A DNA stretch of 64,000 bases from Candidatus Nomurabacteria bacterium (GTDB lineage Bacteria > Patescibacteriota > Minisyncoccia > Phycocordibacterales > UBA918). Each line of letters opens with the position of its first letter. The first letter of the stretch is position 1. The notes under the pieces are model-generated. The model had not been told where the DNA came from, ran no database searches, and worked only from the letters and a program-made list of their open reading frames with translations. This document shows, piece after piece, positions 1-19,688 of this stretch. Location: contig CP060228.1 of assembly GCA_023898565.1 (NCBI GenBank), forward strand, positions 240,594 through 304,593, read 5' to 3'. The position numbers and the translations under genes are program-made.

Positions 1-1042
1 AAAACTCAGTAAGTAAATGCGAACCTCCATAACTCAAAAACGGCACGGTTGTTCCCGTCACTGGCAGCAAACCAATATTCATACCAATATGCACAAAAAA
101 ATGCGCCACAAATAGCATACATACCCCCGCAGCAAACAGACGCTCAAAATTGGTTGCACCATGTACCGCGCTACTGAGCAATCGCCACACCACCAAGCCA
201 AACAACGTAAAAAGCAACAACACACCAATAAGCCCCCATTCCTCAGCGTACGCTGCAAAAATGAAGTCGGTTTCATATTCAGGCAAAAAGAGCAACTTTG
301 ATTGTGTACCATATCCAATCCCCTTACCAAAAAGCTGACCAGATCCGATGGCTACTGTCGACTGATATGCATTGTATCCAGCCCCTTGAATATCTGATAG
401 CGGATCTAAGAACGTCATAATACGCTCTTTTTGATACGGCAAAAACACAAACTGCCACAAAATCCCAAACGCCACCGCGCCGAGTAAAAACACCGTCAGT
501 AAGTGCCGGAGTTTAATTCCTGAAACAAGCACCATCCCCAACCACACAAAGAAAAGAATAATTGCCGAGCCAAAGTCAGGCTGAATAAACACCAGGCCAA
601 AAATACCAAGTGCGTACATTCCCGAGACAATAATGTGTCTGAAGTCACCAATCAGCTCGTGTCGTTTGGCAAAATACTTCGCCAACACAATAATCAATAC
701 TAATTTAGCGGGATCGGATGGCTGGAATGAAAAGAAGCCTAAGTCAAAACGACTTTGCGCACCAAGCGTAATTTCACCAATCATAAGTACCAACAACAGC
801 AAACCAATAGTGAAAAGGTACAAGAAAAAGGCGGTGTTCCCCATTCTCAAAAAACGATAATCAGGCACCATTGCCACTAACAGTGCAATCGTTGCTGCCG
901 CAATCCAAATAAGCTGACGGTTGAAAAATTCATTATCGCCAACATGTGAGTACATGGTGACCAACCCCATGAGCGAAAGGCCAATCACACTGAGAAACAG
1001 CGTTACGTCAAACCCGCCAAAAAATGTTTTGAGTTGTCCCAT
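1..1042 (-). CDS. SEDS-family cell-cycle protein FtsW/RodA (C-terminus beyond window edge)
   Basis: Manual translation of the minus strand from ATG at 1040-1042 gives MGQLKTFFGG...PVTGTTVPFLSYGGSHLLTEF, an open frame to position 1. It is a multi-TM protein with the SEDS signature; it is absent from the ORF track only because it is edge-truncated. Confidence 0.8.
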   Translation of the reverse strand, partial: MGQLKTFFGGFDVTLFLSVIGLSLMGLVTMYSHVGDNEFFNRQLIWIAAATIALLVAMVPDYRFLRMGNTAFFLYLFTIGLLLLVLMIGEITLGAQSRFDLGFFSFQPSDPAKLVLIIVLAKYFAKRHELIGDFRHIIVSGMYALGIFGLVFIQPDFGSAIILFFVWLGMVLVSGIKLRHLLTVFLLGAVAFGILWQFVFLPYQKERIMTFLDPLSDIQGAGYNAYQSTVAIGSGQLFGKGIGYGTQSKLLFLPEYETDFIFAAYAEEWGLIGVLLLFTLFGLVVWRLLSSAVHGATNFERLFAAGVCMLFVAHFFVHIGMNIGLLPVTGTTVPFLSYGGSHLLTEF

Positions 1043-1087
1043 TATCTCATTGTACCCCTCTGGTGCAGCTCCAGGAACTTGCGCAAC

Positions 1088-2467
1088 CTACCGCACTTCT
1101 GCGAAATTAGTTTTCGGCTTAGCAATAATATCAATCTTGGTAGGCCCCGATTCACAAAGTGAAGACGTGATTTCAGCATAAATATCTGCCAAATCGGCAC
1201 CAGTTGGAGCAAAGTAGGCATTAGCCGGCTCACTCGCAATCTGATTGATAAACTGGCGGTCGACTCCAGCACCAAGGCCAATTGCGTACACTTCGATATT
1301 ATCTTTATTCAGTTCCGCAGCAGTTGTGACTGCTTCTGCCACTGCATCTTCATCTCCCGCAGCAGTTGGCAATCCATCCGTCAAAAGCACTAACACTCGA
1401 CGAGCGTCGTTGTTATGCTCCACTGCATTTAATTCGGACGCCGCCAGCGTGAGCGCAGCACTGGTGTTTGTAAATCCAGACTCTTCACTTGAAGCAATCT
1501 GCAAATCCATTAACGCACCAACCACACTATCCCGACTTGCGCCAAGTGGTGAAATCAATGTCGCCTCTGTAGCAAACGTAACAAGCGCAACCTGGTCTGT
1601 ATCTTTAAGCGCGCTCACAAACGTACTGGCAGCCTCTAGTGCTGCAGTCACTGGCTGTGGCGGATCCCCGCCATCATTGTTCATACTACCCGACAGGTCA
1701 ATCGCTACGGCCACATCGGTTGGAATAATACAGCTTTTTACAGTCTTGGCGATTGAGTTTGGCCACGTAAATACAATGTCTTTAGTGCCACGAGCTGGAA
1801 TTGACTCAACGTATGTCTTTGATGCGGTTACCGGAGTGCCTCCCTCATCGAAAATAGTCGCGATTACCTCAACGTCGCTCGCGCCCACTAGTTCGGTATT
1901 TTCAATGGTTACATCAAGACGAGGACTTTCGTCAGCGTCAGTCAGGTCGATATCAAGTGAGCGGAATTGATCACGCGCTACTGAAGCTGGTAACCACAAT
2001 GACGCTGGCTTTAGCGTGAGTGTTGTTTCAGTCACCGCTGTTGCGCCAGTAGTAAAAATCTTCCCTTCAAAAATGGGATAGACACTATTGGGAGGCAGTG
2101 CAATAACACCCTCTCGTGAAGCAAGTATCGTACCGTTGTTTTTGAGCTCTAGCACATATTTCAATTCCGGCACACCGGCGGTTTGATTGGTGTTTTCGAT
2201 ATACGCGACCGAATTATACTGACCAGGCGCAATCTCAAAACTTTGTGCCCACACTATCCGCGGTGGTACTACTGTCGCCGCACAAATCTGCACACAGCCA
2301 CCACCGCAATCCACGCCTGTCTCTGCCCCATTCATCACTCCATCAAGACACGTAGGAGCTTGATAAAAATTAACATAATATGCAAACGCACCCACGAGCA
2401 ACCAAAACAACAAAAAGCCAGAACCATACTGTACTCTTCTTGCCACTGCCCAAGGTCTAATGCTCAT
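1088..2467 (-). CDS. membrane-anchored von Willebrand factor type A (VWA) domain protein
   Basis: N-terminal TM segment; VAIDLSGSMNNDGG...ALVTFATEATL...VLVLLTDGLPT matches a VWA MIDAS-type motif (DxSxS...T...D). Confidence 0.7.
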   Translation of the reverse strand: MSIRPWAVARRVQYGSGFLLFWLLVGAFAYYVNFYQAPTCLDGVMNGAETGVDCGGGCVQICAATVVPPRIVWAQSFEIAPGQYNSVAYIENTNQTAGVPELKYVLELKNNGTILASREGVIALPPNSVYPIFEGKIFTTGATAVTETTLTLKPASLWLPASVARDQFRSLDIDLTDADESPRLDVTIENTELVGASDVEVIATIFDEGGTPVTASKTYVESIPARGTKDIVFTWPNSIAKTVKSCIIPTDVAVAIDLSGSMNNDGGDPPQPVTAALEAASTFVSALKDTDQVALVTFATEATLISPLGASRDSVVGALMDLQIASSEESGFTNTSAALTLAASELNAVEHNNDARRVLVLLTDGLPTAAGDEDAVAEAVTTAAELNKDNIEVYAIGLGAGVDRQFINQIASEPANAYFAPTGADLADIYAEITSSLCESGPTKIDIIAKPKTNFAEVR

Positions 2468-2543
2468 GTGCCTTATTGTATCAGGTAAAACAAAGCGAAG
2501 AACGTTGCCCTATGCACAAAACTGCCACCGTCTGATAATTTTG

Positions 2544-5156
2544 CTATATCTCCTCGACCGTTCCAGTCGTTTCAATAACAGCCGTGTCAGTAAATATAGT
2601 AGAACCATCAACCGCGACACAGCGGAGTATAAATTCTGATTTGTTATTGATTGGTCCCACATTACTTAGCGTTCCGCTCGTGACTAAACCGCCGGAGTAA
2701 ACTGTTTGAGGTCCGCCTAAAGACGGCCCTTCAATTTCACAACTGCCAATATACCCGGCACCATTAAGATCCCAGTGTAGATCAATAGCATTGCCCGCTC
2801 GTACCAAACGATCCGGATCAGTTGTTAGTGAAATGTCTGGATCAGGGTACCCAACATAAATTTGGCGCATAAAAATATTGTCATCTTCGTTTGATTCAAG
2901 AACATCATCATCAGCATCAACTAAAATCTCTACCATATGTGGGCCAGGCGGAATATCGCTGCCCAGGTTGATTGATTGTGTTCCGGTATCGCTACCGTTC
3001 ATTATTGAGGGAATAGATACGTTTACAACCTCATCAAAACCTCCACCGCCATAATCAATGTTGAATCTTAACACTGACTCGAGCGCCTCAGTAGTTCCAT
3101 CATTAAAAATATTGTAATTAATAGTGAAGTAGTCATAATGGCCTGTCGTCCGATCAAAGGTAACTGAAGTTGCCAAGCTGCCAACATCAGCAGAAAGGTT
3201 AGGAGCTGGTGGAGCTTCCGAAATGGTAAACGGATATGAGGCGCAATTGTTCGACTCATCGAGTTCTGATACGCTATCAAATCCAAAATCAAGATCGACT
3301 GCGTCAGCGCAGACGTACAAGACATGCGAGCCGACCACTGCCGTTGACCAAGTGGTACTAGTCGAATATGTCATGCCATTGGCCAAACGACCCGTATTAC
3401 TATCACCATGGACTCGGCCAATGTTACTAGTAGCACAGTTTGGATTATCAACGCAAAATCGAACTAAACTGTTCAAACCATACGACCGAACACCATTTAA
3501 ACCACCAGCAAATAAATACTGTTGATTGCCGTACTCATAACTTACATGTGCATAGCCAGAGGTTTTTCCACCAGCATGCCCCACCAATTGAGCACTGTAC
3601 GGCACCGACACATCAACAGCGTTGACTCCGGCAAAACCAGTCACGTTGCCAACAAAAGCATAGCGATCATTGTGAGAAATGCCTCCTCCATACAGCAAAT
3701 TTGAATTCGTAGAGAAGTCACTGAAGTCGATACGATCAAGTAAGATAAGGTTAGCAGGATCGCTTACATCAACCACCGCGAAATCATCGGATCCATTGAG
3801 CGATATGTACAGCGTGTCATCCCCAAATAAGTCAATTTTGTTTACACCAACCGGGCTAAGGTCCGGCAAATCCAGCTCATTAACCAAGGCCAGAGAATTC
3901 AAGTCGTATACTTTTAGCTTTGTTCCTCCTGACACTGGAACCGATAATTTATACAAAAAACCATTGCCGACCGTGAAATTTGGTACGGTATCTGCTTCAG
4001 TAATAGAAGCTGTTTTGACTGGGTTAACTGGATCAGTGATGTCGAAAACCTCTAGATTTTCCATCGGGAAACCAGCATTACCATTGGCTGTTCCTGTAAA
4101 TAAGTAACTTTCGTCAATCTTTAGCACCTCAAATGAAGGCAAGGCTGTGGTAAACGTATTAACTAACACTGGATTAGTTGGATTTGAAATATCATAAATT
4201 TTGACATTATCGACATTTCCGCGCGCACCGATATAAGCGTAATTGCCCCGCACTTCAATCTGATTTGGATAATCACCGCCTGGCACTACCACACCGCCAA
4301 CTTTTATAATATTTTCCGGATCTGAAACATCATAAATACGTAAACCTTCTGCAGAAATAGTGTAGACCGCCGCATACAAGTAATTTCCGACCTGGACCAT
4401 GTCATACACACCACCATCCGCATACATATTTTCTGACTCACTTGCCACTCGATAGCCATAGGTATTTTCTGTTGTCATTGAGTCTGCAATATTGCGAATA
4501 TCTGCACTAAAGGTAATTTGCTCTCCCTCTTGCAGCAAACCAACCACAGAAACGTTTTCTACCACTATATCCGGGGCTGTAAAAACAGGACCCAGACAAG
4601 CACTAGCTGAACCAGTAACCCCAGGAGCATTACCACCATCATTACCAAAATCAATCCAACCAACTACCGAAGATCCCCATGCCCAACCACTCCAGTCACA
4701 AGAATTATCAACCGCTACGCCATACGGCGCACCATCCAAGGCCGTTCCAGAAAGACTTATCCAACCGTCCCAGCCGCCACTGTTCACTCCGGCGGCTACC
4801 GCAGACAATGCTCGCGCCCATCCAGTAACTACGCCTGTAGCACGATTTAATTGAGCCACGCAGCTGCCGCTTGGACAACCGCTTAAATCACCTCGGTCAA
4901 AGCTAATCCAACCAACATGTTCGCTCCAAGCATAGCCTGAGATTGTTCCTAGTGTGTTTACCGTTACGCCATAGTCTGGGCTAGCAGGTACATCTAGACT
5001 ATTCATCGAAATCCAGCCAATGTTTTCACTCCACGCGTAGCCAGACACATTATCGGTTGCAGCTGCCTCTACCACAATAGGTTGAACAGCAGCGACAAGA
5101 GTTGCCAGCAAGAAAGCCGCTGGAAAAAGAGTCGTAAATATTTTGGTAAGAGACAT
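2544..5156 (-). CDS. giant secreted repeat protein (N-terminal GYAWSE-x-GWISF repeats, CARDB-like segment, LVIVD-type beta-propeller repeats)
   Basis: Signal peptide; repeated SGYAWSENIGWISMNS / SGYAWSEHVGWISFD / WDGWISLSG motifs; repeated [LVI]x[IV][YF]D[IV]SDPxNP units (LRIYDVSDPENI, VKIYDISNPTNPV, LEVFDITDPVNPV, FAVVDVSDPANL) typical of LVIVD repeats. Confidence 0.65.
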   Translation of the reverse strand: MSLTKIFTTLFPAAFLLATLVAAVQPIVVEAAATDNVSGYAWSENIGWISMNSLDVPASPDYGVTVNTLGTISGYAWSEHVGWISFDRGDLSGCPSGSCVAQLNRATGVVTGWARALSAVAAGVNSGGWDGWISLSGTALDGAPYGVAVDNSCDWSGWAWGSSVVGWIDFGNDGGNAPGVTGSASACLGPVFTAPDIVVENVSVVGLLQEGEQITFSADIRNIADSMTTENTYGYRVASESENMYADGGVYDMVQVGNYLYAAVYTISAEGLRIYDVSDPENIIKVGGVVVPGGDYPNQIEVRGNYAYIGARGNVDNVKIYDISNPTNPVLVNTFTTALPSFEVLKIDESYLFTGTANGNAGFPMENLEVFDITDPVNPVKTASITEADTVPNFTVGNGFLYKLSVPVSGGTKLKVYDLNSLALVNELDLPDLSPVGVNKIDLFGDDTLYISLNGSDDFAVVDVSDPANLILLDRIDFSDFSTNSNLLYGGGISHNDRYAFVGNVTGFAGVNAVDVSVPYSAQLVGHAGGKTSGYAHVSYEYGNQQYLFAGGLNGVRSYGLNSLVRFCVDNPNCATSNIGRVHGDSNTGRLANGMTYSTSTTWSTAVVGSHVLYVCADAVDLDFGFDSVSELDESNNCASYPFTISEAPPAPNLSADVGSLATSVTFDRTTGHYDYFTINYNIFNDGTTEALESVLRFNIDYGGGGFDEVVNVSIPSIMNGSDTGTQSINLGSDIPPGPHMVEILVDADDDVLESNEDDNIFMRQIYVGYPDPDISLTTDPDRLVRAGNAIDLHWDLNGAGYIGSCEIEGPSLGGPQTVYSGGLVTSGTLSNVGPINNKSEFILRCVAVDGSTIFTDTAVIETTGTVEEI

Positions 5157-5293
5157 ATGATTACATTATCCCTAGCATTGTACCACCAGCGCAACACAGC
5201 GCTCAGCAGACTATCCACCCAGGAAACACGCCTTGCATGTGTGTGAGTACCTATTACAAACAAAAACCCGCCACATTCGTGGCAGGGAGCTCA

Positions 5294-5719
5294 TCACTTG
5301 AGCTCAACACCGTCCCAGGGGCGATGATCCACCCAGACGTTGCCCTTGCGGGTCAAAATGAGATTTTGGCAGCTGTTCGTCACATGAAGCGTGCCGTCGG
5401 CGGACAGTGTGCCTTTTGCCGGAGTGAAGTTCCGGCAGGCCGGATTGTTCTTGCTGCGGAAGTTGATTTGGCCTTCGAATCCATCAGCGGTTTGCTTGCT
5501 GATCTCGAGCGTCATCCATCCCCGCGCATTTCCATCTCGCCAGTTGCCGTTCAGCTCACTAGGGAGCGTCACCGCTTGGCTGCCAGAGCCCAGCTTCACC
5601 GCCTGCAGGCCGGAGCCAACAGCCGATGACCTGGTTTGAGTGGTCGTACACGCCGCCAGAAACAGCGAGAACGCGACACACATGAAAGCGGCAAAAAGAC
5701 CGCGGAACTTGGTTGCCAT
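5294..5719 (-). CDS. small lipoprotein, hypothetical
   Basis: Signal peptide with lipobox (FLAAC); preferred over the overlapping antisense plus-strand ORF. Confidence 0.5.
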   Translation of the reverse strand: MATKFRGLFAAFMCVAFSLFLAACTTTQTRSSAVGSGLQAVKLGSGSQAVTLPSELNGNWRDGNARGWMTLEISKQTADGFEGQINFRSKNNPACRNFTPAKGTLSADGTLHVTNSCQNLILTRKGNVWVDHRPWDGVELK

Positions 5720-5873: not shown

Positions 5874-5984
5874 ATGTTGGCGCCTACCTACTCTTCCGCT
5901 TGCGCAGTACCATTGGTGGTAGAAGACTTTACTTCCGTGTTCGGAATGAGAACGGGTGTACCCCTTCCCCCAAAGCACCAACAT
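5874..5984 (-). rRNA. rrf: 5S rRNA
   Basis: Reverse complement reads TGTTGGTGC...CCGAACACGGAAGTAAAG...GCGCCAACA, with helix I pairing and conserved 5S loop motifs. Confidence 0.85.
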
Positions 5985-6046
5985 AAAACTTTCAAATTAA
6001 TCGTCGCTACGCTCGTGTGAAATGGTCCCGACAAAAGAACAAGGAA

Positions 6047-6118
6047 GAGGGGGAAGCAGGATTTGAACCTGCGACCTCTGGTGGTGAACCAGTGCTCTGC
6101 CAAACTGAGCTATTCCGC
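6047..6118 (-). tRNA. tRNA with non-canonical anticodon arm; anticodon probably CAC (Val?), identity uncertain
   Basis: Reverse complement GGCGGAATAGCTCAGTTTGGCAGAGC ACTGG TTCACCA CCAGA GGTC GCAGGTTCAAATCCTGC TTCCCCC T shows canonical D and T arms (GGTTCAAATCC). The anticodon stem has only 4 bp plus an A.A pair, position 37 is C, and there is a C3.C70 acceptor mismatch. No CCA is encoded. Confidence 0.55.
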
Positions 6119-6131
6119 CCGTTGTCGGGAA

Positions 6132-6208
6132 ATGGTCGGAGTGACTGGATTTGAACCAGTGACCTCTAGCTTTTTACACTAGCGCTCTACCAGGCTGAGC
6201 TACCCTCC
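6132..6208 (-). tRNA. tRNA with encoded CCA; anticodon reads AAA (Phe?), identity uncertain
   Basis: Reverse complement CGGAGGG TA GCTC AGCCTGGTA GAGC G CTAGT GTAAAAA GCTAG AGGTC ACTGG TTCAAAT CCAGT CACTCCG A CCA. It has a C1:G72 pair and a G6.A67 mismatch; U33-AAA-A37 sits in a 7-nt loop. Confidence 0.55.
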
Positions 6209-6287
6209 GTTTGACCATTTCACACGATCGTATTTGCATATTCAAGAAGTTTCTTCGCTACTCAAAATCTATACATGATGTACAGCG

Positions 6288-9532
<3,245 letters not shown>

Positions 9533-9999
9533 AACGCTATACACCGCTGTATAGATTTTGAGTGTCGCCCGCGCCTACCGGCGCGGGCATTACTGATGTG
9601 TGTCGGGGACGAAAAGACCTGAGCGGTTGCAACACCAAACTCATTTCTTAACCCGACACACTACCTGTGCTTGATGCTTCTGGGCTTGCGACCAGTCACA
9701 CCAAGCGGTGCCTACCGGGCGTCGATTCCACGGTAGGACTTTTCGAAGTCAGACCTTATCAATCTGACTTCTTGAATATGCAATTTTCAACGATCGCGCA
9801 TCCCCTTGAACTTTGGAAGAAAAAAGCCGCGGTGTCGCGGCAAGAAAATCACGAGTGACTCTCTTACTACGACTGAGCTTTAACTCCAAACTTCATAAAT
9901 ACGTGCCCGCTATCTTATACGAATAAAAAATAAAGTCAAGCATTTATTCTGGATATTTATCCTCGGTTCTATCAACAGTTTTTCCCCACCGAAAAATTG

Positions 10000-10716
10000 C
10001 TAGTTTTTGTGTGCCTTCGAACGATTTTGCTGCTCAATCACTCGCTTTAAATCACTAATTTCTTTGTTGTGCACAAACATTGTGGTAACACGGGCGACAA
10101 AAATCATAAATAAAATCGTCCCCAACAAACTCACTATGCCACCAAATACTTTTCCTTGTGGAGATGACGGAATTACATCGCCATAGCCAATGGTAGTGAT
10201 GGTAATCACCGCCCACCACAGTGAGTCATACAAAGACGTGATTGAGCCATCAAACCGCATCTCCACCTGCCACATGATAAACGCAGTGCTGACAATAAAT
10301 ATGCTTATGGTGATGAGAATGTACTCGATGTTATACACCAATTCCCGAGCACTCTTGCGCAACTTTGCGACACTCTTTTGCAACCGAAGAAAACGCAACA
10401 GACTCACCAGCCGCGATAGTCGCATTAAGCGAAGCGATAGAAATACGGGCATGACCGTGATTACTACCAACGACCAGTTTCTTTTCAGCATCGCCAACTT
10501 GCTCTTAGCGACGGCAAATTTTGCAAACAATTCTAAATAAAATGTTGACCAAATGAGTACGTTGAGAAGAGCAAAAACGCGCACCCACGTGTCTGGCAGC
10601 GCAAACAATGCGGGGACAGCAAGTGTCAGCGCCAAACAGACCGTGACCACCAGCATCGGCAACTCAAACCAATCTTCAACCAAACGTTCTCTGGCGGTTA
10701 ACCGGATCGTATTCAT
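10000..10716 (-). CDS. voltage-gated-type K+ channel (6TM: S4-like voltage sensor plus TIGYGD pore)
   Basis: RLMRLSRLVSLLRFLRL has an Arg every third residue, as in an S4 helix. A pore helix plus the selectivity filter TIGYGD is present, with flanking TM helices. Confidence 0.8.
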   Translation of the reverse strand: MNTIRLTARERLVEDWFELPMLVVTVCLALTLAVPALFALPDTWVRVFALLNVLIWSTFYLELFAKFAVAKSKLAMLKRNWSLVVITVMPVFLSLRLMRLSRLVSLLRFLRLQKSVAKLRKSARELVYNIEYILITISIFIVSTAFIMWQVEMRFDGSITSLYDSLWWAVITITTIGYGDVIPSSPQGKVFGGIVSLLGTILFMIFVARVTTMFVHNKEISDLKRVIEQQNRSKAHKN

Positions 10717-11781: not shown

Positions 11782-12249
11782 TTATTTCAATGTCACCTTG
11801 GCTCCAGCTTCTTCAAGCTTAGCCTTAAGTGCCTCAGCGTCTTCTTTCTTCATGTTTTCCTTCACTACTGCTGGAGCGCCGTCTACCATTTCCTTAGCCT
11901 CCTTAAGTCCGAGACCAAGTACTTCCTTCACTACCTTGATAACAGCAATCTTCTGAGCACCAGCTTCAGTAAGTTCAACAGTGAATTCAGACTGTTCTTC
12001 ACCAGCGTCGCCAGCGGCTGCTGGACCGGCTACTGCAACAGCTGCTGCTGATACACCAAACTTCTTCTCAAATACCTTTACGAGTTCGTGTAGCTCGAGA
12101 ACGCTCATCTTTTCGATAGCTTCTACGATGCTCTTGAACTGGGCAGGAACTTCTACTTCTTCAGTAGTTTCTTCTGCTACTACTTCAGCGGCTGCTGGAG
12201 CGGCAGTTTCAGTAGTTTCTTCTACCTTTGTTTCATTTTCTTCACTCAT
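11782..12249 (-). CDS. rplL: 50S ribosomal protein bL12 (L7/L12) with acidic N-terminal extension
   Basis: The C-terminal domain [56 protein letters not shown] and the N-terminal dimerisation helix [28 protein letters not shown] are both present. The start is taken at M15 of the track ORF (ATG 12247-12249). Confidence 0.85.
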
Positions 12250-12385
12250 GATAATTTTTAGTTTAGTTCTATAGTCAGAGCGTTCCAGCAATTTGCTTTA
12301 GTAAAGAAGCAAATTGGGAACTAAATTCAGAATAGTCGCTTGCGCTCCTTTCTTCATTTATCTTCTGACATAATCTAGAATTTAA

Positions 12386-12874
12386 TTATGCACCTTTCTT
12401 CTCAGCTACAGCGTTGAGAACAATCGCGAGCCCCTGAATAGGTGAATTAATAACGTTGACGAACATACCACGAAGCACTGGAAGCGCTGGGATTGAAGCA
12501 ATCTCAGTCATTTCAGCTGCATCCTTGAATACGCCCTGGAAGACTCCACCTGCAATTGAGATGTTGTCCTTATACTTTCCTGCAAACTCTTTGATCTGCT
12601 GCGCTGGAGTGATGGCGTCGGCGCTGTATGCCACCGCGATCTCTCCCTCAAGTTCAGGCATAGTGCCCTCAAACGCTTCACCAAACGTACGCTTCATCAG
12701 CGTCTTCTTAGCCACAAAGTAGCCAACGCCCTGTTCGCGAAGCTGTGAACGCATTGCAGTTGTGTCAGCCACGGTCATCCCGTTGAACTTCACAAACACA
12801 ATTGACTCTGAGTCAGCCTTTACGCCATCAAGTTTTGCAAGAATGTCTTGTTTTTTTGCTTTTGTAATTGCCAT
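12386..12874 (-). CDS. rplJ: 50S ribosomal protein uL10
   Basis: MAITKAKKQDILAKL...; start taken at M28 of the track ORF (ATG 12872-12874). It lies immediately upstream of rplL. Confidence 0.85.
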   Translation of the reverse strand: MAITKAKKQDILAKLDGVKADSESIVFVKFNGMTVADTTAMRSQLREQGVGYFVAKKTLMKRTFGEAFEGTMPELEGEIAVAYSADAITPAQQIKEFAGKYKDNISIAGGVFQGVFKDAAEMTEIASIPALPVLRGMFVNVINSPIQGLAIVLNAVAEKKGA

Positions 12875-13087
12875 GATTTTATAGAAATCAATGGATAAAC
12901 TGCAGGCCCGGCGGGTAGATATAAAAAATACCCCTGACGGGCTCGACCTTTCCACACTAAAAAATAGTTGGACCTCGGCCGGCGGCGAATGCCTTTACTC
13001 CCCTTGAGGAACCAGCTGTCATGAGCCTGCGTGGAGACACTATACCAAAAAAATTAAAATTGCCAAGCGCTACGCGCTTGACAAAAG
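12875..13087 (-). promoter_or_regulatory. rplJ 5' leader (candidate L10 autoregulatory leader)
   Basis: A ~210-nt untranslated region lies between the upstream terminator and the rplJ start. In other bacteria this leader binds the L10(L12)4 complex; that role here is inference. Confidence 0.3.
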
Positions 13088-13110
13088 AACGGCCCGCTGC
13101 GCGGGCCGTT
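13088..13110 (-). terminator. intrinsic terminator after pgsA-like gene
   Basis: aacggcccgctgcgcgggccgtt. Confidence 0.5.
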
Positions 13111-13112
13111 AA

Positions 13113-13694
13113 CTATAGAAAATACCGCCTGAACGTAGCCGCCCGATTAAGTCCCCATGAGGCAAGGACCAATCCCAGCGAGACCATCGCCAGCTCATCG
13201 GGCGCCACAAACGACACCAGAGAGGGATACAACGCCACGATCATCAAGCCAAACAGCACGGCCGTTTTGGTTTTTGAAAGCAGTGTCACCGGCTTGGTAG
13301 CTGGTGCACGTACCCCGCGCATCGCCGCTGCGATATCAAACCGCCGCTGGTAGGTGTTGTCGATGTCATACAGCAAGTTGACCACAAACAACACACTGAG
13401 CCAAACCGAACCAGACGTAATGGCAAGACCAAGCAAAAACGGATTGGTGAAGCACTTATCCGCCAGCGGGTCGATTACCGCACCAAGCGGCGTCACCATC
13501 CCCTGCCGTCTCGCCAGCCAGCCATCAAGCCAGTCGGACAGACCAGCATACACGACTGCCAAAAACAGCACGTGTGTGCCGGCAAGCCACCACAAAGGCA
13601 CAGCCACCCCCGCCACTGCTCGACTGAGCGAAATGGCATTGGGTAGATTCCACTGCCGCGACGACCCTTGCCAGTACATCTCTGCCATATGCAT
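13113..13694 (-). CDS. pgsA: CDP-alcohol phosphatidyltransferase (PgsA-like)
   Basis: The motif SDWLDGWLARRQGMVTPLGAVIDPLADK matches D-x2-DG-x2-AR...G-x3-D-x3-D. Multi-TM protein. Confidence 0.8.
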   Translation of the reverse strand: MHMAEMYWQGSSRQWNLPNAISLSRAVAGVAVPLWWLAGTHVLFLAVVYAGLSDWLDGWLARRQGMVTPLGAVIDPLADKCFTNPFLLGLAITSGSVWLSVLFVVNLLYDIDNTYQRRFDIAAAMRGVRAPATKPVTLLSKTKTAVLFGLMIVALYPSLVSFVAPDELAMVSLGLVLASWGLNRAATFRRYFL

Positions 13695-13736
13695 GTCGTT
13701 CCCCTTTCAACACAAAAAGACCAGATCAAGCCGTAC

Positions 13737-13838
13737 TCTATCCTATTTTTATTTTTCTGCCTAGGGAGCCGCCATCCAGTGCCTGCAAAACCATCACTGC
13801 AATACAAAGTATTACTAATACTGGGAGTTTTTTATTCA
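13737..13838 (-). pseudogene. orphan 5' fragment of the small-protein paralogue family
   Basis: MNKKLPVLVILCIAVMVLQALDGGSLGRKIKIG* is a 34-codon fragment. Its first ~25 codons and the upstream region 13796-13925 are near-identical to 15566-15690. Confidence 0.5.
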
Positions 13839-13900
13839 TAATCTCAATGGCACTCCGCGCACTGTCATAATTTGTTGAACTCTATCTTTGTTAATTGTAT

Positions 13901-14452
13901 TTACTCTATGAACTCGAAAGAGTTAAGAAAATCAACAAATGCATCCTTTTGTCTTACCTGGCCAGATAAGTGTATCCAGTACTCATCGCTAATCAAGATA
14001 TAGTAATTTTCAGTTGGACCACCAATACCCTGATCATTTACCGCAAATAATGCAGTTCTATTTTTGAACTCCACCTCACTAATAACCACTCCACGGGCCT
14101 TCATTTTTGCATGCGCGCTTTCGATCCAGCTCTTTGGAGTAATATTTACCAAAATTGCATGTAAATTATAGGGATCAATAGGCTCAATAGCCATATTGAA
14201 CAAACTGACACTACTACCAAACGCTGGTTCCCTCACCTCCCATTCCTGTGGATACTCAAACTGAAATCCCCAGTCTTCATTGCGATAAATATTTGCATCG
14301 GTTGTCTCTATTTCAACAAATTCTTCCGGGGACGTTGTGGCGGTTTGTTTGGTGTCTTTCTCAGCTGCTGAATCAGATGGTTCATGCCACAGCCACCAAG
14401 CAGCCCCAATGAGTACCAAAACCACTACAAAAGTTAAGAGTGACTTATTCAT
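13901..14452 (-). CDS. small membrane-anchored protein, paralogue family member 1 (conserved YRNEDWGFQFEYP ... SFEFIE)
   Basis: N-terminal TM anchor; shared motifs with 14548-15075 and 15664-16212. Confidence 0.6.
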   Translation of the reverse strand: MNKSLLTFVVVLVLIGAAWWLWHEPSDSAAEKDTKQTATTSPEEFVEIETTDANIYRNEDWGFQFEYPQEWEVREPAFGSSVSLFNMAIEPIDPYNLHAILVNITPKSWIESAHAKMKARGVVISEVEFKNRTALFAVNDQGIGGPTENYYILISDEYWIHLSGQVRQKDAFVDFLNSFEFIE

Positions 14453-14547
14453 GTTTCAGGTTTGTAATTAATTGGTTGATAATGTGCGTTATTTATTCTA
14501 TATCATTCGCTGCCACCACATCATTTTTGCCCACTTGTCACACAGGT

Positions 14548-15075
14548 TTACTCGATGAATTTAAAGGTGTTGAGAACAAGCTGGAGCTCTGACGCGTACT
14601 CATCTTGCACACTCAAATTTATCCAATATTCATCATTAATCAGTACAAAGTATTCTTGCGTCGGTATTGAAGACATAGTAACAGAGGAATAACTCCACCA
14701 TTCCCGACCACCTATTACTATCTTTGACTCAAATTTCTTTCTCAATCGCTCCCCCCATTCTTTTGAGCTTATGAAAATACGTAATGGGGAAAAGGCTAAT
14801 TTTTCATCATCAATTAAACCAATGTTTAGTAGGGCGGCCTTATTAGAAGAAACGGGATCTTGTAAATTCCATCTTTTGGGATACTCAAACTGAAATCCCC
14901 ACTCTTCGTTTCTATAGATGTGGTTCTCGTTTTCAGCAATCTCTTCAGGCTGCTTCGTTTCCACAATGTCTTCTGTGGCCTGCTCGCCCGTCTTAATAAA
15001 AAGCCCGTGCCAAGCTGCCAATCCGACCGCGACCGCAATACAAAGTATTGTTAATACTGGGAGTTTTTTATTCAT
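14548..15075 (-). CDS. small membrane-anchored protein, paralogue family member 2
   Basis: MNKKLPVLTILCIAVAVGLAAWH...NHIYRNEEWGFQFEYP...NTFKFIE; start taken at M16 of the track ORF. Confidence 0.6.
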   Translation of the reverse strand: MNKKLPVLTILCIAVAVGLAAWHGLFIKTGEQATEDIVETKQPEEIAENENHIYRNEEWGFQFEYPKRWNLQDPVSSNKAALLNIGLIDDEKLAFSPLRIFISSKEWGERLRKKFESKIVIGGREWWSYSSVTMSSIPTQEYFVLINDEYWINLSVQDEYASELQLVLNTFKFIE

Positions 15076-15602
15076 CAACAAATTCAAAGGACTCAACAAC
15101 ACCAGCAAACAACTCTTCATAATGGCCGTTTGTGCCCAAAATCATTTTATAATCTTTAATGGGAAGAATTATCGCTATCTCTGTATCACTTTTCCAGTCA
15201 TAAATATACTTAACCCCAGAAACTCCGTCGACTACAATCAATTCTTCGGTCTTGTCTATGTTATTAAATGATTTTTCCGCAAAACTGTGTGTAACAATGT
15301 TTACCAGCACTGGGTCACCGTGATGTAATTCTTGATCAGGATAGAGAGTCACATTAAACTCTGAACTGCCACTTTGAAACGGGATCTTGTAAATTCCATC
15401 TTTTGGGATACTCAAACTGAAATCCCCACTCTTCATTTCTATAGATGTGGTTCTCGCTTTCAGCGATCTCTTCAGGCTGCTCCGTTTCCGCAATGTCTTC
15501 TGTGGCCTGCTCGCCTGTCTCAATAAAAAGCCAGTGCCAAGCTACTAGTCCAGCCACAACTACAATACAAAGTATTGCTAATACTGTGAGTTTTTTATTC
15601 AT
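15068..15602 (-). pseudogene. frameshifted/chimeric member of the paralogue family
   Basis: The N-terminal 82-codon ORF (15354-15602) shares ~220 bp of near-identical DNA with paralogue 2 (14850-15068 vs 15378-15603). It ends in a stop and continues in another frame (15068-15523) encoding a divergent C-terminal domain that ends ...SFEFVDE. Confidence 0.5.
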
Positions 15603-15663
15603 AATTTCAATGGCACTATGCGCACTGTCATAATTTGTTGAACTCTATCTTTGTTAATCACAT

Positions 15664-16212
15664 CTATTCTATGAACTCGAAAGATTCAATGATCTGATTG
15701 TACTCCTCTTCATATTTACTAATTCCAGTAATATCAATCCAATACTCATCACTGACCAAGACTAACGTGAGAATCGCTGGACGACTCCACCCATCTTTAT
15801 CATATGTCTTGTAGGCTGATTTCCCGTCTAGAAAAATCTCTTCAAAAACAACTCCCCTAGCCTTCATTTTGGTCATGGCACCTTCTATCCAGTTTTTGGG
15901 AGTAATGTTTATCGTGATGCCATTGGCAGGCGCTGGACCAATTGCCATATTGAATAAACTCACACCACTCACGAATGCCGGTTCCCGCACCTCCCATTCC
16001 TGTGGATACTCAAACTGAAATCCCCAGTCTTCATTGCGATAAATATTTACATCGGTTGTCTCTATTTCAACAAATTCTTCTGGGGACGTGGTGGCAGTTT
16101 GATTAGTGCCAATCTCAACCTCAACTGCTGAATCAGACATTTCGTGCCACACCCACCAAGCAGCACCAATGATTACCAAAATCAATACAAAAGTTAAAAG
16201 TGACTTACTCAT
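15664..16212 (-). CDS. small membrane-anchored protein, paralogue family member 4
   Basis: MSKSLLTFVLILVIIGAAWWVWHE...YRNEDWGFQFEYPQEWEVREPAF...ESFEFIE. The start overlaps the stop of the upstream giant gene by 8 nt. Confidence 0.6.
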   Translation of the reverse strand: MSKSLLTFVLILVIIGAAWWVWHEMSDSAVEVEIGTNQTATTSPEEFVEIETTDVNIYRNEDWGFQFEYPQEWEVREPAFVSGVSLFNMAIGPAPANGITINITPKNWIEGAMTKMKARGVVFEEIFLDGKSAYKTYDKDGWSRPAILTLVLVSDEYWIDITGISKYEEEYNQIIESFEFIE

Positions 16213-18979
16213 ATTTCAGTTTTGCAATTAACTGACTGATAATGTCGTTTATTTCGTCAGCGTCACTGTTATTCATTCCCCGACCAGCCCGTCGCTCTAC
16301 CAAACGGTTAAGATTTTTTAAAATAGCCGATGCTGCGCGCTTACGATTTTTATTATAATGTTTCTCGGCCAACTTCAAATTAGCTTCTAGTCGTAACCGA
16401 AGAAATCGATTTTGAATCTCAGCTTCATCAATTCGTTCATTTAATAGACTAAATAGCGGCTTTGTATTTAGTGGAACCTCGACCTCCTCAATCACTTCTC
16501 CGCCGCCACTCACCTCTACCGCAAAACCTTGTGGGGGAATTTCAGACACTAACTCATCCTTAGCAAGCTCAATAACTGTTTGACCCGTGTTCAGCACAAG
16601 TGAATACTGACTCCCAGAAGTAGCTGTTTCATCAGGCGCCACCTCAAATATGTAGACGCCATCTTTCAGTTCTGTGAAGTACACCCGGTCAATTGACTGA
16701 CCATCGTGACCGCGCTCAATTTCTGAGTAATACATTACCCCCGGAACTTCTCGGATATACTCCAAATCAGATGGGATGATATCCTCGTATGACAACGTCA
16801 AGCCATCAGGGTCGGTGACAATCAGGTCAACCGGAGAAAAGGTGCTGGCAGAAGAAAATCCGTGCTGGTGAATACGTCTGCGTTCAACAAAATCAGAATC
16901 TTTTTCATAATTTACACTTTCCCCTTGAATCACTCCAAGATCTTCAGACGATGCGTTCACCACATCGTACCCTTCGCTTTCACCAACGTACATTGCCACA
17001 TGACTGATTCGAGAATCATCCCCGAAGAATAATGCGTCCCCCGGCTCCAACTCCCCCACCACCTCACTTGACTGCACATCACCGAACATGCCATCAGCAG
17101 TTACATTGGCCACATAATTGTCATGCGCTTCAGTTGGATCATTTGCCTTGTTAAAAGCCCAATAAATCAACCCCGAGCAGTCGATTCCAGGCGCAACTCT
17201 TTCGTAATTGTAATAATGATTCTTTTGATAGTAGCCTGAAACTATCTCATGTGGATCAACGAAATAACCCTCGATGTAGTTCCAACCACGGGAACCTAAC
17301 TCATACACATCTCCTGGATCTGCTTGTGACTGAACCGCTGCCGCTAGTAATTGTTTTGCCAACTCCGCAGCCCTCTCACCCAGCGTGAGTTCAGGAGTCG
17401 GCTCGGGTTCAGGCTCTGGTTCTGGTGCAGACTGCACCGCTACTGTCACCTGGCAATTATTCGAGCCGCCAACACTAGTGAACATAGCAGTGTAGGTTGT
17501 CGTTTCCGTCGGCGATACGACCAATTCACCAGTAGGATCAACCGCGCCTATGCCAGTATCAATCTCGACCGATGCCGCATGCTCGCTGGTCCAAGAAAGA
17601 GTTGTCGTGCCACCAGCAGCAATTGTCGCTGGTGCTGCATACATAACACACGTTGGTGCTGGTGGATTCACCTCAATAAAATCATCCGCCGTAGCGCAAC
17701 CCGGATCAGCGGGAAAATCAATAAGACCATCAGCATCATTATCGATCCCATCGCTACACTGTGCCAGCGGCAACTCGACCAATTGTGCTGCTGTGCGTGG
17801 GAATTCGTCAAACAAACCAAAGCCATTCAATTCATAGGCTTGATCGCAGAAATCATCAGCATCTTCATTGACACAGCCTTCCCCCACCTCATCAAAGGTA
17901 TCCCAATAATTACCACCCAGCGAAGCGTGCGAGAAAGCCACTTCAGTAGCCCACTCCGGCACATCAACATGCGTGTCGTTGTTGATAAAATTATTACCAT
18001 ACAGCCAGCTGATTGATTCAGCTTGCGCGTACGCAACCTTCGATACTGCTGACCGTACTATGACTGCAAAATTATGAACAAGATTTTTTAGCTGCTCACT
18101 AAGCGCAATCTTGCGCACTTGATGTGCAGCACCAAACGTAGGGATCGGCTCATCACCTGGACCACCAGCGTCGCTCGAAGCAACTACCACCACACCCGTA
18201 TTCCCGTCACGAAAGGCGTTGTTTGTAACGATGTTGCCTGCTGCATTATCTGTCTGTAGCGTAAGAGCAATATTTGAGCGCGCAATATCATTGGCAGTAA
18301 TTGTATTGCTGCTTGATAGATCAATTGATACCCCCGTAGTCGATTCGGCGATGCGATTCTCTTTCACCACACTACCGCTAACCGCATTCAAATCAATACC
18401 AACAGCAGCATGCTCAATGAAATTATTACGTATCTCAAGATTTGCAGCATTTTGCGCACTCACCGCAGTCCAAAGTGGAGCATCACTACTCCCGCGCACC
18501 ACATTCCCTTCCACCAAGCCACCAATCTGATCGAAGAAGTGGATGCCACTAAACGAAGACTCAATGACATTGGACTTGGCCCGGCCACTATCTGCTTGAT
18601 CAAAGATAATTCCACCACCAATCAAATTAAGGTTTTGAACAGCCACACCCTCGACGCTGTTCACTCGCACCGCCCATTTCTCGCCTGACATATCATCGAT
18701 ATCTATAGTATGTCCGGCCCCCTCAAGGGTAGCTGCCGAAGTAGTGATGATAATTGGTTCAGAAATGTCTGTAGTCAGCGTGCACGTACGATTCGTCGCC
18801 TCCCAGTTGCCAATGGACCGACAACCACCGCCAGTTGCATTGATTTCATAAAATGCCTGGGAGGCTGCAAATGACAGCGCCCAGGCACAAACAGAAACCA
18901 TGATTGCGACAAAATATGACACTCTGCTATGACCGATCATAGTCATTTTGCTGTTTGAGTAATTCGGCTTTGTGGCCAA
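16205..18979 (-). CDS. giant secreted protein: right-handed beta-helix (PbH1) repeats + NlpC/P60 peptidase domain + C-terminal coiled coil
   Basis: Signal peptide present. PbH1-like repeats are IRNNFIEHAAVGIDLN / VKENRIAESTTGVSIDLS / ITANDIARSNIALTLQ. The NlpC/P60 catalytic signature is IDCSGLIYWAF ... GDALFFGDDSRISHVAMYVGE (Cys and His). A PEPEPEPEP linker is present. The start may be M12/M14. Confidence 0.7.
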   Translation of the reverse strand: MATKPNYSNSKMTMIGHSRVSYFVAIMVSVCAWALSFAASQAFYEINATGGGCRSIGNWEATNRTCTLTTDISEPIIITTSAATLEGAGHTIDIDDMSGEKWAVRVNSVEGVAVQNLNLIGGGIIFDQADSGRAKSNVIESSFSGIHFFDQIGGLVEGNVVRGSSDAPLWTAVSAQNAANLEIRNNFIEHAAVGIDLNAVSGSVVKENRIAESTTGVSIDLSSSNTITANDIARSNIALTLQTDNAAGNIVTNNAFRDGNTGVVVVASSDAGGPGDEPIPTFGAAHQVRKIALSEQLKNLVHNFAVIVRSAVSKVAYAQAESISWLYGNNFINNDTHVDVPEWATEVAFSHASLGGNYWDTFDEVGEGCVNEDADDFCDQAYELNGFGLFDEFPRTAAQLVELPLAQCSDGIDNDADGLIDFPADPGCATADDFIEVNPPAPTCVMYAAPATIAAGGTTTLSWTSEHAASVEIDTGIGAVDPTGELVVSPTETTTYTAMFTSVGGSNNCQVTVAVQSAPEPEPEPEPTPELTLGERAAELAKQLLAAAVQSQADPGDVYELGSRGWNYIEGYFVDPHEIVSGYYQKNHYYNYERVAPGIDCSGLIYWAFNKANDPTEAHDNYVANVTADGMFGDVQSSEVVGELEPGDALFFGDDSRISHVAMYVGESEGYDVVNASSEDLGVIQGESVNYEKDSDFVERRRIHQHGFSSASTFSPVDLIVTDPDGLTLSYEDIIPSDLEYIREVPGVMYYSEIERGHDGQSIDRVYFTELKDGVYIFEVAPDETATSGSQYSLVLNTGQTVIELAKDELVSEIPPQGFAVEVSGGGEVIEEVEVPLNTKPLFSLLNERIDEAEIQNRFLRLRLEANLKLAEKHYNKNRKRAASAILKNLNRLVERRAGRGMNNSDADEINDIISQLIAKLKYE

Positions 18980-19415
18980 CCAGATTAGAAAGGAGCTGCA
19001 AAAATGTAGCTACAGCAGAGAGAGCTAGAAGTAATACCGGGAAGACTGCGTACGGTGTAATGAGGTAAAAGAAAATCACTACTGCTGCAAGCCACATGCC
19101 CATGCACCACGGACAGTCAAACAGATCAGCTAACGTGCGGCGCGGGCCAGTCTTCGGCTTTTGAAGCTCGTATCCTCGCCCCACCTTCACCACATCCCAA
19201 AACTGTTCACGGATAAACTTAGTGATGCCATCGTACACAAACAGCCGAGTCAGACGCCACGTTGCAAGCGTGATAAGGACAAAGTCAACCAGCGTGAGAT
19301 CGACCAGTGGAATCCGAGCTTCGGTCTCTAGAATAATCGCTCCCATGATTATCAAAACTGCAAAAAAAACGGAGAAAACAAAGTTCCAAAAATATTGATC
19401 AGTAATACGAAACAT
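18927..19415 (-). CDS. DUF1360-like membrane protein
   Basis: Multi-TM with a CPWCMGMW motif; start taken at M25 of the track ORF. Confidence 0.55.
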   Translation of the reverse strand: MFRITDQYFWNFVFSVFFAVLIIMGAIILETEARIPLVDLTLVDFVLITLATWRLTRLFVYDGITKFIREQFWDVVKVGRGYELQKPKTGPRRTLADLFDCPWCMGMWLAAVVIFFYLITPYAVFPVLLLALSAVATFLQLLSNLVGHKAELLKQQNDYDRS

Positions 19416-19600
19416 AAGACTATTGTACACCTTCGCCACCTGTACCGATAAGCAAAATAAACAAGAGCACACCAGCGACGACCGCAATGAAACTAAAGAG
19501 AAAGCGGTAGAAGGTTTTGTTGGCGAGTTTCTCTGATATGTTTTGGCGGAAGGCGTTTTTACGTGGTGGCATAGTGAGTACAGTATACCAAATCAAACGC

Positions 19601-19637
19601 AAAACCGCCGGAAACCCTTCGGGTTTCCGGCGGTTTT
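19601..19637 (-). terminator. intrinsic terminator
   Basis: aaaaccgccggaaacccttcgggtttccggcggtttt. Confidence 0.6.
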
Positions 19638-19688
19638 GCTTCCTTTCTCCCCACTCCGTCACCGCCAACCAAAATCACTCAGATACAC

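Follow-up and report, generated by a model that had tools for sequence, protein, structure and literature searches.

A tandem array of genes for small PsbP-like proteins behind an NlpC/P60 hydrolase gene in Candidatus Nomurabacteria: organization, probable recombination and possible role

Organization of the locus

We consider here a run of tandem genes lying in a stretch of 64,000 nt from the genome of a Candidatus Nomurabacteria bacterium (assembly GCA_023898565.1, contig CP060228.1). This stretch as a whole is the window, in which all coordinates below are counted. The array is made of four and a half copies of a gene for a small membrane-anchored protein, all on the minus strand and named, 5' to 3' on that strand, D, C, B, A and stub. 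It is set in an operon where a DUF1360 gene and the gene of a large secreted hydrolase of 924 residues come before it, and pgsA after it (Table 1). The ATG of D and the stop of the hydrolase gene overlap by 8 nt, and the stop of C overlaps the ATG of B in ATGAATAA, the spacer being absent between these two copies. A scan for terminators found no terminator-like site within the array, and a tblastn search of the window found no additional paralogue beyond it. The G+C content of the array is 40%, for 45-51% in its surroundings.

The protein encoded just ahead of the array matches, in Pfam, NosD (E=1e-16), Beta_helix (E=8e-10) and NLPC_P60 (PF00877, E=5e-9, 36.4 bits for a cutoff of 23). The NlpC/P60 domain extends over residues 590-669, its catalytic Cys and His motifs are read as GIDCSGLIYW and ISHVAMYVG, and the protein begins with a signal-like hydrophobic segment.

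The small proteins are less easily named. D is identical to a protein from a Candidatus Nomurabacteria metagenome-assembled genome (MAG) held at NCBI (P0002, H6780_01205). With PF18933 (PsbP_2), A, B and D score 22.0, 23.6 and 20.1 bits, all below the gathering threshold of 27 bits (E=6e-5 for B and 7e-4 for D); 24 of 28 family members match that profile at E<0.01, the best at 5.6e-9, and P0030 and P0071 score above 27 bits. Judged from these profile scores, the family of A, B and D is a divergent branch of PsbP_2. The AlphaFold2 model of A (pLDDT 85.5) has a transmembrane (TM) helix at residues 3-23, a disordered linker at 29-50 and an alpha/beta sandwich. For this model Foldseek retrieves PsbP/CyanoP as best PDB matches (2xb3 with E=4e-5 and probability 1.0, 2lnj, 4rth), with BT_1490, Apa, DcrB and EagT6 as further ones, and the predicted ectodomain is of the PsbP alpha/beta sandwich type. 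A word-indexed sequence search gave only 29 clusters, those with a name belonging to Candidatus Nomurabacteria or Kaiserbacteria, and an exhaustive profile search gave 99 clusters at E<=1e-30 and 438 at E<=1e-10, many with two or three tandem domains. The GTDB species-representative genomes, which leave out the locus of this lineage, yielded to the family profile only an irrelevant match of 26 residues in a Zixibacteria MAG (L003).

Table 1. Features of the operon and its tandem array, with positions in the window
Feature	Position	Strand	Remarks
Hairpin terminator, strong	19599-19639		5' boundary of the DUF1360-hydrolase-array-pgsA operon
DUF1360 membrane-protein gene	18927-19487	minus	
Secreted multidomain protein, 924 aa	16205-18979	minus	NosD/right-handed beta-helix, NlpC/P60, C-terminal helical domain
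Paralogue D, 182 aa	15664-16212	minus	Array position 1; TM anchor, acidic linker, predicted PsbP-fold ectodomain
3'-end and intergenic homology block, copy 1	15603-15689	minus	Last ~26 nt of D and 61-nt spacer
Copy C, out-of-frame chimera/pseudogene	15068-15602	minus	
Paralogue B, 175 aa	14548-15075	minus	From the ATG at 15075
B-A spacer, 95 nt	14453-14547	minus	
Paralogue A, 183 aa	13901-14452	minus	Mosaic relative to D
Core homology block	14227-14346 (in A)	minus	Encodes ...IYRNEDWGFQFEYP...
3'-end and intergenic homology block, copy 2	13840-13926	minus	End of A and 61-nt spacer
Orphan 5' stub, 33 codons and stop	13738-13839	minus	Last element before pgsA
pgsA-like CDP-alcohol phosphatidyltransferase gene	13113-13694	minus	Pfam PF01066, E=8.5e-21; conserved downstream flank
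Terminator-like hairpin after pgsA	13088-13110		

Repeats, mosaics and sibling haplotypes

A preliminary description of this DNA had reported that the 5' ends of two paralogues are about 90% identical (14850-15068 and 15378-15603) while the coding sequence downstream diverges, that a second pair of repeats exists, and that an orphan gene start lies next to pgsA. The self-comparison by BLAST that it proposed recovers every one of these elements within a few bases. B and C share 227 nt (14849-15075 and 15376-15602) at 92%, with 19 mismatches and no gaps (self-blastn E=3e-76); this block, the only part common to both, starts exactly at the two ATGs, and downstream of it B and C are not alignable at the DNA level. 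The second pair (13791-13926 and 15554-15689, 136 nt, 89%) spans the 3' end of a gene, the 61 nt that separate it from the next one, and 49 nt at the start of the latter. What had been missed is that this pair is the tail of a homologous block of about 700 bp (13791-14494 and 15554-16254), which takes in all of A and D together with 42 nt from the 3' end of the hydrolase gene. The 42 nt that end the hydrolase gene (16213-16254) have a diverged copy at 14453-14494 (about 80-84%), within a repeat, 14360-14494 against 16120-16254, that is 84% identical; this tail of the hydrolase gene, standing ahead of A, marks the A block as copied from a gene in first position.

The mosaic relation of A to D follows the same blocks. 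The two genes are 97-100% identical over the core block of A, 35-65% over the C-terminal module (13927-14186), and about 90% across the 3' end, the spacer and the start of the stub, as read in sliding windows; the two copies of the 3'-end and intergenic block are 89-100% identical. The core block, which encodes IYRNExWGFQFEYP, recurs at 15981-16100 in D, about 14876-14949 in B and about 15403-15476 in C, with a mean pairwise DNA identity of 71-88% among six non-redundant copies; it is the only DNA block conserved in all copies, the start and 3'-end blocks being weaker. As for the orphan gene start, its first 44 nt are 93% identical to the start of B, the homology to the starts of B and C covering 44-49 nt, and its similarity to the family is gone after about codon 24. 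Both 61-nt spacers share a weak sigma-70-like motif, TTAACA-16-AATTAT (13894-13867 and 15657-15630), which beside the stub could, if functional, act as an internal promoter of pgsA; such a promoter might account for the stub region being kept in the haplotypes H1, H2 and H4 described below.

Copy C had been taken for a chimera or a pseudogene which switches frame directly 3' of the repeat, and this is how we read it as well, as two modules joined out of frame. Between its 5' open reading frame (ORF; 15354-15602, 82 aa) and its 3' ORF, the frame of which runs to 15068, there is an offset of +1; the junction, GATCCCGTTTC followed by AAAG, lies at about 15376, exactly at the end of the block shared with B; past this point B stays in frame and C moves to the +1 frame, the 5' frame continuing for six codons to a TAA. 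With one position bridged, the C protein can be aligned over its whole length to A, B and D, through the C-terminal SFEF motif, and the hidden Markov model (HMM) of the family matches both ORFs (E=3e-21 and 1e-24). Downstream of the junction, C carries a distinct C-terminal module (15068-15375), with intact relatives only in other lineages (P0013, P0019, P0025); no intact close allele of C is on record, the best matches being P0025 (44%) and B itself. Programmed +1 frameshifting was set aside, there being no slippery or stop-codon context at GTTTCAAAG.

The preliminary description would have fallen if the repeats were an artefact of assembly, with mis-joining, strain collapse or indel errors producing the repeats, the chimera or the frameshift. 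The source is a MAG, and in relatives the repeats are often where a contig breaks off (L001 begins only at 16046, and L004 stops 120 nt into its gene 2). However, the longest exact matches between copies are of 61 (A against D), 59 and 39 nt, shorter than the read length and than k=141, which argues against this view. Moreover, an exact-sequence look-up retrieved an independent MEGAHIT assembly (k141) from a different sample, ENA ERZ27248697 contig k141_499037 (L001), that is collinear with the window from 16046 to 8654 (7.4 kb, 99.6%) and has the same frameshift in C, with the same truncated ORF of 82 aa. It represents a distinct, slightly different strain, with about 20 single-nucleotide polymorphisms (SNPs) in the pgsA/rplJ region and one, at 14888, in the array. 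Another contig, L002, is 100% identical to the window over 13546-14567; the hybrid first gene presented below occurs in four contigs from two assembly pipelines, and no homopolymer longer than 3 nt is found at the frameshift junction. The array structure and the frameshift of C are real, and artefact, an explanation now largely refuted, keeps only a minute probability.

The comparison with sibling genomes, also proposed in the preliminary description, brings to light three alternatives to the four-copy array of the window, which we name haplotype H1; the locus is the same, between the same 924-aa gene and the same pgsA-rplJ-rplL genes, and the breakpoints fall in the repeats that had been flagged. 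H2 (L005-L009), found in five samples including the NCBI MAG GCA_020428845.1, has a D-type gene as its only copy, with spacer, stub and pgsA after it; taking one unit of 1763 bp (15559..13796) out of the window yields this haplotype, the switch being located within the 49-nt block of start homology. The first gene of H3 (L004), coding for P0004, reads along its informative sites as 58 of D type, 135 of A type (with 3 exceptions) and 45 of D type again, the last ones being of the D-flank/C-start type. Its breakpoints, at D 15987/15979 (= A 14233/14225) and 15619/15618 (Fisher p=1e-46 and 1e-39), fall just downstream of the core block on the 5' side and within the 15603-15689 block on the 3' side: this is a clean swap of the C-terminal cassette of A into position 1. 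H4 (L016-L018; three samples, two assembly pipelines) has three genes in a module order that differs from that of the window. The first is the same hybrid as in L004; the second (P0011, 207 aa) has only its first ~14 codons in common with C and carries a B-like C-terminal module; the third (P0006) joins a novel N-terminus to a D-type module 99% identical to 16048-15559, and spacer, stub and pgsA come after it. The stub, with unchanged ORF length, is the last element in H1, H2 and H4, the three haplotypes that reach pgsA, and we take it therefore as an old scar rather than the product of a recent event; the preliminary description had it left behind by the duplication of the second repeat, and its presence even in the one-copy haplotype speaks against a recent origin in this genome.

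Conservation of the proteins might have sufficed to keep the 5' segments alike, and it is divergence at synonymous sites that decides the matter. Nei-Gojobori estimates of synonymous divergence (dS) between A and D are 0.22 in codons 1-72 and 2.09, that is saturated, in the remainder; in the 5' block of B and C dS is 0.21. Synonymous divergence is thus ten-fold lower in the shared blocks than elsewhere in the same genes. The N-terminal anchor and linker are the least conserved region of the protein in the family alignment, and for this reason protein constraint does not account for the near-identical 5' segments; low dS and poor N-terminal conservation together indicate a more recent shared ancestry of these blocks, hence recombination. 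That the array has been shaped by recombination is, in our view, very probable, the mechanism being well supported, and the gene conversion or cassette shuffling put forward in the preliminary description is borne out by the contrast in dS and by the sibling rearrangements. Its word "recent" has to be divided. The intragenomic blocks differ by 8-11% (dS about 0.2), that is 4-7 times the divergence between strains, while dS between haplotypes is 0.03-0.06 (924-aa gene, pgsA, A module). It follows that the intragenomic conversions predate the strain splits, and that the young events are the rearrangements between haplotypes.

Other sources of variation were considered and rejected. A diversity-generating retroelement does not fit the B/C mismatches, 17 transitions and 2 transversions that involve all four bases (reverse transcriptase was not searched for); an invertible shufflon does not fit copies that are all on one strand, with no relevant inverted repeats; and for slipped-strand phase variation, Tandem Repeats Finder reports no repeat in 13600-16400.

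A few observations on the neighbourhood may be added. The positions at which L001 departs from the window are clustered, with about 20 in pgsA and the rplJ leader (within 12620-13497), 8 in 22 nt (9621-9642) just upstream of the 23S rRNA gene and only one in the 2.3 kb of the array, which suggests separate recombination tracts between strains. That single one (L001 position ~1159) changes the core motif of B from WGFQFEYP to WGFQSEYP (P0001, F63S), and the loss of this nearly invariant Phe may betray relaxed constraint on B in the L001 strain. In the window and in L001, rplJ and rplL are separated by a spacer of about 136 nt (12226-12360), whereas contigs L005-L008, of the one-copy haplotype, have only 14 nt there; a 10-bp hairpin (CAATTTGCTT...AAGCAAATTG) lies in the ~120 nt by which the longer spacer exceeds the shorter, and rplL is 100% identical between long- and short-spacer strains. 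The hairpin at the 5' boundary of the operon has a perfect 19-bp stem with 12 G-C pairs and scores as a terminator on both strands. Farther along, 5875-9531 on the minus strand contains a 23S rRNA gene (6289-9531), two tRNA genes and a 5S gene. The 23S rRNA has 3243 nt for a model of 2925 nt, an insertion of ~300 nt; the next gene upstream encodes an ion-channel protein (10000-10716), there is no adjacent 16S rRNA gene, and the rRNA genes look unlinked in their arrangement.

The hydrolase and the role of its small neighbours

The hydrolase, for its part, is nearly invariant. Between the window and L004, 12 of 911 residues differ, with a ratio of nonsynonymous to synonymous divergence (dN/dS) of 0.11; for L017 and L018, 5-10 residues differ, and the ratios range over 0.11-0.17. 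The association with small genes extends beyond this population. In three unrelated contexts (L010, L012, L013) a single family member comes directly after the gene of an NlpC/P60 protein of 642-744 aa, overlapping or abutting it, and our own HMM finds an NlpC/P60 homologue directly upstream in 36 of the 49 fetched loci that have upstream sequence. Twice the two partners are found in a single chain. A 1709-aa ORF (L027, Ga0209541_10042166, 259-5388) encodes a signal peptide, Kelch-like repeats, NlpC/P60, an amphipathic segment, three tandem PsbP-like domains and an extra domain, and P0156, with 1343 aa, combines NosD, beta-helix, NlpC/P60 and one PsbP-like domain. Both fusions have an amphipathic segment in place of the TM anchor, and P0156 has, after its PsbP-like domain, a repeat of the 'PVDLxVTDPDGFTIT' beta-sandwich module. 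There is also a third recurrent component, a protein of ~357 aa with an N-terminal anchor (L031 3294-4373; L036 2907-3980), homologous to the extra C-terminal domain of L027 (residues ~1400-1709); in some lineages its gene lies just upstream of the PsbP-like genes.

How can this be put together? The genes are tandem paralogues for small extracytoplasmic proteins, placed in one operon directly behind a secreted NlpC/P60 cell-wall hydrolase, and remodelled by unequal crossing-over and gene conversion at three short blocks of homology: the first ~50 nt of the gene, the ~120-nt core encoding IYRNE(D/E)WGFQFEYP, and the 3' end with its 61-nt spacer. Exchange at these blocks has left near-identical 5' segments on otherwise unrelated paralogues (B/C, A/D), has joined two modules out of frame in the pseudogene C, has made the number of copies vary between 1, 3 and 4 in the population, and has moved whole C-terminal cassettes between positions, with the stub as an older truncation scar. 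Taken as a whole, as a recombining array that encodes partner proteins of the hydrolase, we hold this explanation to be probable on balance. For its functional part, namely that the small proteins serve the hydrolase as interchangeable subunits, anchored in the membrane, with a partner, docking or targeting role, the chances seem to us about even. Where the preliminary description had left the choice between a variable surface repertoire and an immunity repertoire, we infer the former rather than a set of antitoxins.

Indeed, the same arrangement might be seen as a means of defence. The NlpC/P60 protein would then be an antibacterial or self-dangerous cell-wall toxin which the PsbP-like proteins neutralise at the surface, extra non-identical copies guarding against the variants of competitors, as in the esaG and tipC arrays. 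A small gene directly downstream of that of the hydrolase, with overlapping stop and start and conserved across lineages, would suit this role; the TM anchor and the ectodomain of the model would place the proteins where a cell-wall enzyme acts, and the block recombination, the mosaics, the deletions and the pseudogene closely resemble what is seen in esaG and tipC (Garrett et al., 2022, Microb Genom, PMC9484751). Yet the hydrolase remains almost the same across differing arrays and no polymorphic toxin is in evidence, while the PsbP-like domain is fused to it in two independent proteins, three times over in one of them, a situation unusual for an inhibitor though not incompatible with one. 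The PsbP/Mog1 fold is familiar from scaffolds, chaperones and extrinsic subunits; we know of no hydrolase inhibitor with that fold, which we count as a further point against immunity. The PADLOC defence models gave no match for A, B, D, the hydrolase or the DUF1360 gene, and no specialised secretion system was seen in the DUF1360-hydrolase-array-pgsA operon, the rest of the window not having been screened for type VII secretion (T7SS) genes. Immunity seems to us unlikely, and we favour the partner role because the hydrolase is invariant, because it is repeatedly fused to the PsbP-like domain and because the fold is of a scaffold or accessory type.

It might also be that the variation has no adaptive value at all, the array being a by-product of duplication and unequal crossing-over with copies that are redundant or decaying. 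Many strains, and most of the other lineages, make do with a single copy, the array includes a pseudogene, C, and a remnant, the stub, dN/dS in the modules (0.2-0.5) is relaxed with respect to the 0.11 of the hydrolase, and B has lost a nearly invariant residue in L001. Neutral turnover of this kind is a real alternative, though we regard it as improbable: the ORFs of A, B and D have kept their full length, with dN/dS well under 1, the C-terminal modules that diverge, with their saturated dS, are old and have nevertheless been maintained, and tandem genes or domains recur across several lineages. Programmed antigenic variation, in the manner of pilE/pilS or vlsE, with an expressed copy rewritten from C and the stub as silent cassettes, would be in line with the cassette replacement of L004, both breakpoints of which are in conserved blocks, and with the otherwise intact module retained by the non-functional C. 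It is nonetheless very improbable: only one of the four copies is incomplete, the other three being genes of one terminator-free operon, each with a start codon, and not cassettes that lack promoter and start, the two H1 strains differ by one SNP over the array and show no sign of rapid switching, and the intragenomic tracts are old.

Several points weigh against the explanation that we prefer, that of a recombining array of hydrolase partners. In 13 of the 49 loci no NlpC/P60 homologue is detectable directly upstream; among six such loci inspected, four carry upstream C-terminal fragments of large surface proteins, and L019 has a remnant of the C-terminal helical domain of the 924-aa protein. 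The partner role would be deduced from gene order and from two fusions, and gene order, translational coupling and the behaviour of the array also suit an immunity or inhibitor role. The dN/dS of the modules, obtained from small counts, provides no evidence of positive selection, and the variation could for the most part be neutral. The haplotypes are read from metagenome contigs, few of them long, with H3 present in one contig only, and the history is only partly ordered as regards the ancestral haplotype and the direction of the B/C transfer.

Attachment to a host is the presumed way of life of bacteria of the candidate phyla radiation (CPR), and little is understood of the proteins at their surface or of those that act on cell walls; a module that would provide a conserved hydrolase with variable partners is for this reason a reasonable candidate for host-interaction studies. 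One may go further and imagine that these very small and presumably epibiotic bacteria turn the hydrolase on the wall of a host cell, with the PsbP-like proteins as its interchangeable, membrane-anchored docking or specificity subunits; shuffling of the C-terminal cassettes and changes in copy number would then serve, at the level of the population, to diversify the host range or to evade recognition by host or phage. This extension looks improbable to us at present; were it true, it would amount to a previously undescribed two-component surface system specific to Patescibacteria.

Comparison with known systems

The closest analogue described is found in the T7SS loci of Firmicutes, with the esaG (DUF600) and tipC arrays of immunity genes. 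There, non-identical tandem paralogues lie downstream of a secreted protein, two or three blocks of homology, one of them made of the 3' end and the downstream spacer, are set apart by variable regions, and recombination between blocks creates deletions, expansions, mosaics and pseudogenes among close strains (Garrett et al., 2022, PMC9484751). Non-identical tandem paralogues with discrete homology blocks, the 3' end and spacer among them, occur here as well, and so do loss, expansion and mosaics among close strains, in H1-H4; TipC, like the proteins considered here, is membrane-tethered, extracytoplasmic, and faces an enzyme directed at the cell wall. The differences are as telling. The proteins of the present array have a predicted PsbP-like fold and belong to a CPR-restricted clade; the upstream protein, with its signal-like segment, appears to be of the Sec type, no T7SS or LXG context having been identified, and it is not polymorphic between haplotypes. 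Finally, the domain is found fused to the enzyme, which makes an immunity function doubtful.

Considered from the side of the fold, the proteins resemble the PsbP/Mog1/DUF1795 group by their predicted alpha/beta sandwich and an N-terminal beta-hairpin motif. They differ from it in being below threshold in Pfam (A, B and D) and in being tethered outside the cell through an N-terminal TM helix, in a CPR bacterium taken to be monoderm. PsbP/CyanoP, DcrB and the Eag chaperones, these last being 'effector-associated' accessory proteins, are accessory or binding subunits of a larger partner, as the present proteins may be, the partner here being an NlpC/P60 hydrolase and not photosystem II or a type VI secretion effector. 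In the literature, a search combining CPR, NlpC/P60 and immunity found nothing relevant, and one on PsbP-like proteins and hydrolases found only work on Eag/DUF1795 chaperones.

Two other systems deserve comparison. In the antigenic variation by gene conversion of Neisseria pilE/pilS and Borrelia vlsE, silent cassettes devoid of a start serve one expression site. A variable cassette replaced between conserved flanks, and a non-expressed copy with a usable module, recall what is seen here; in contrast, there is no single expression site in the present array, where A, B and D are full genes of one operon and only C is defective, nor is there evidence of high-frequency switching. The lpl/DUF576 genes of Staphylococcus aureus form tandem lipoprotein clusters with variation in copy number. 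They too are tandem genes for small exported proteins with conserved N-terminal and variable C-terminal parts, in a number of copies that depends on the strain, but the proteins here are not lipoproteins (no lipobox), and their array is strictly coupled to one upstream hydrolase gene. Recombination at blocks between tandem paralogues is textbook knowledge, documented in detail for the T7SS immunity arrays. What is new is a CPR-restricted and unannotated clade of TM-anchored proteins with a predicted PsbP fold, the nearly obligate pairing of this clade with a large secreted NlpC/P60 hydrolase, to which it is occasionally fused, and a locus which turns out to be a hot spot of structural change among strains of a Nomurabacteria/Kaiserbacteria-like population.

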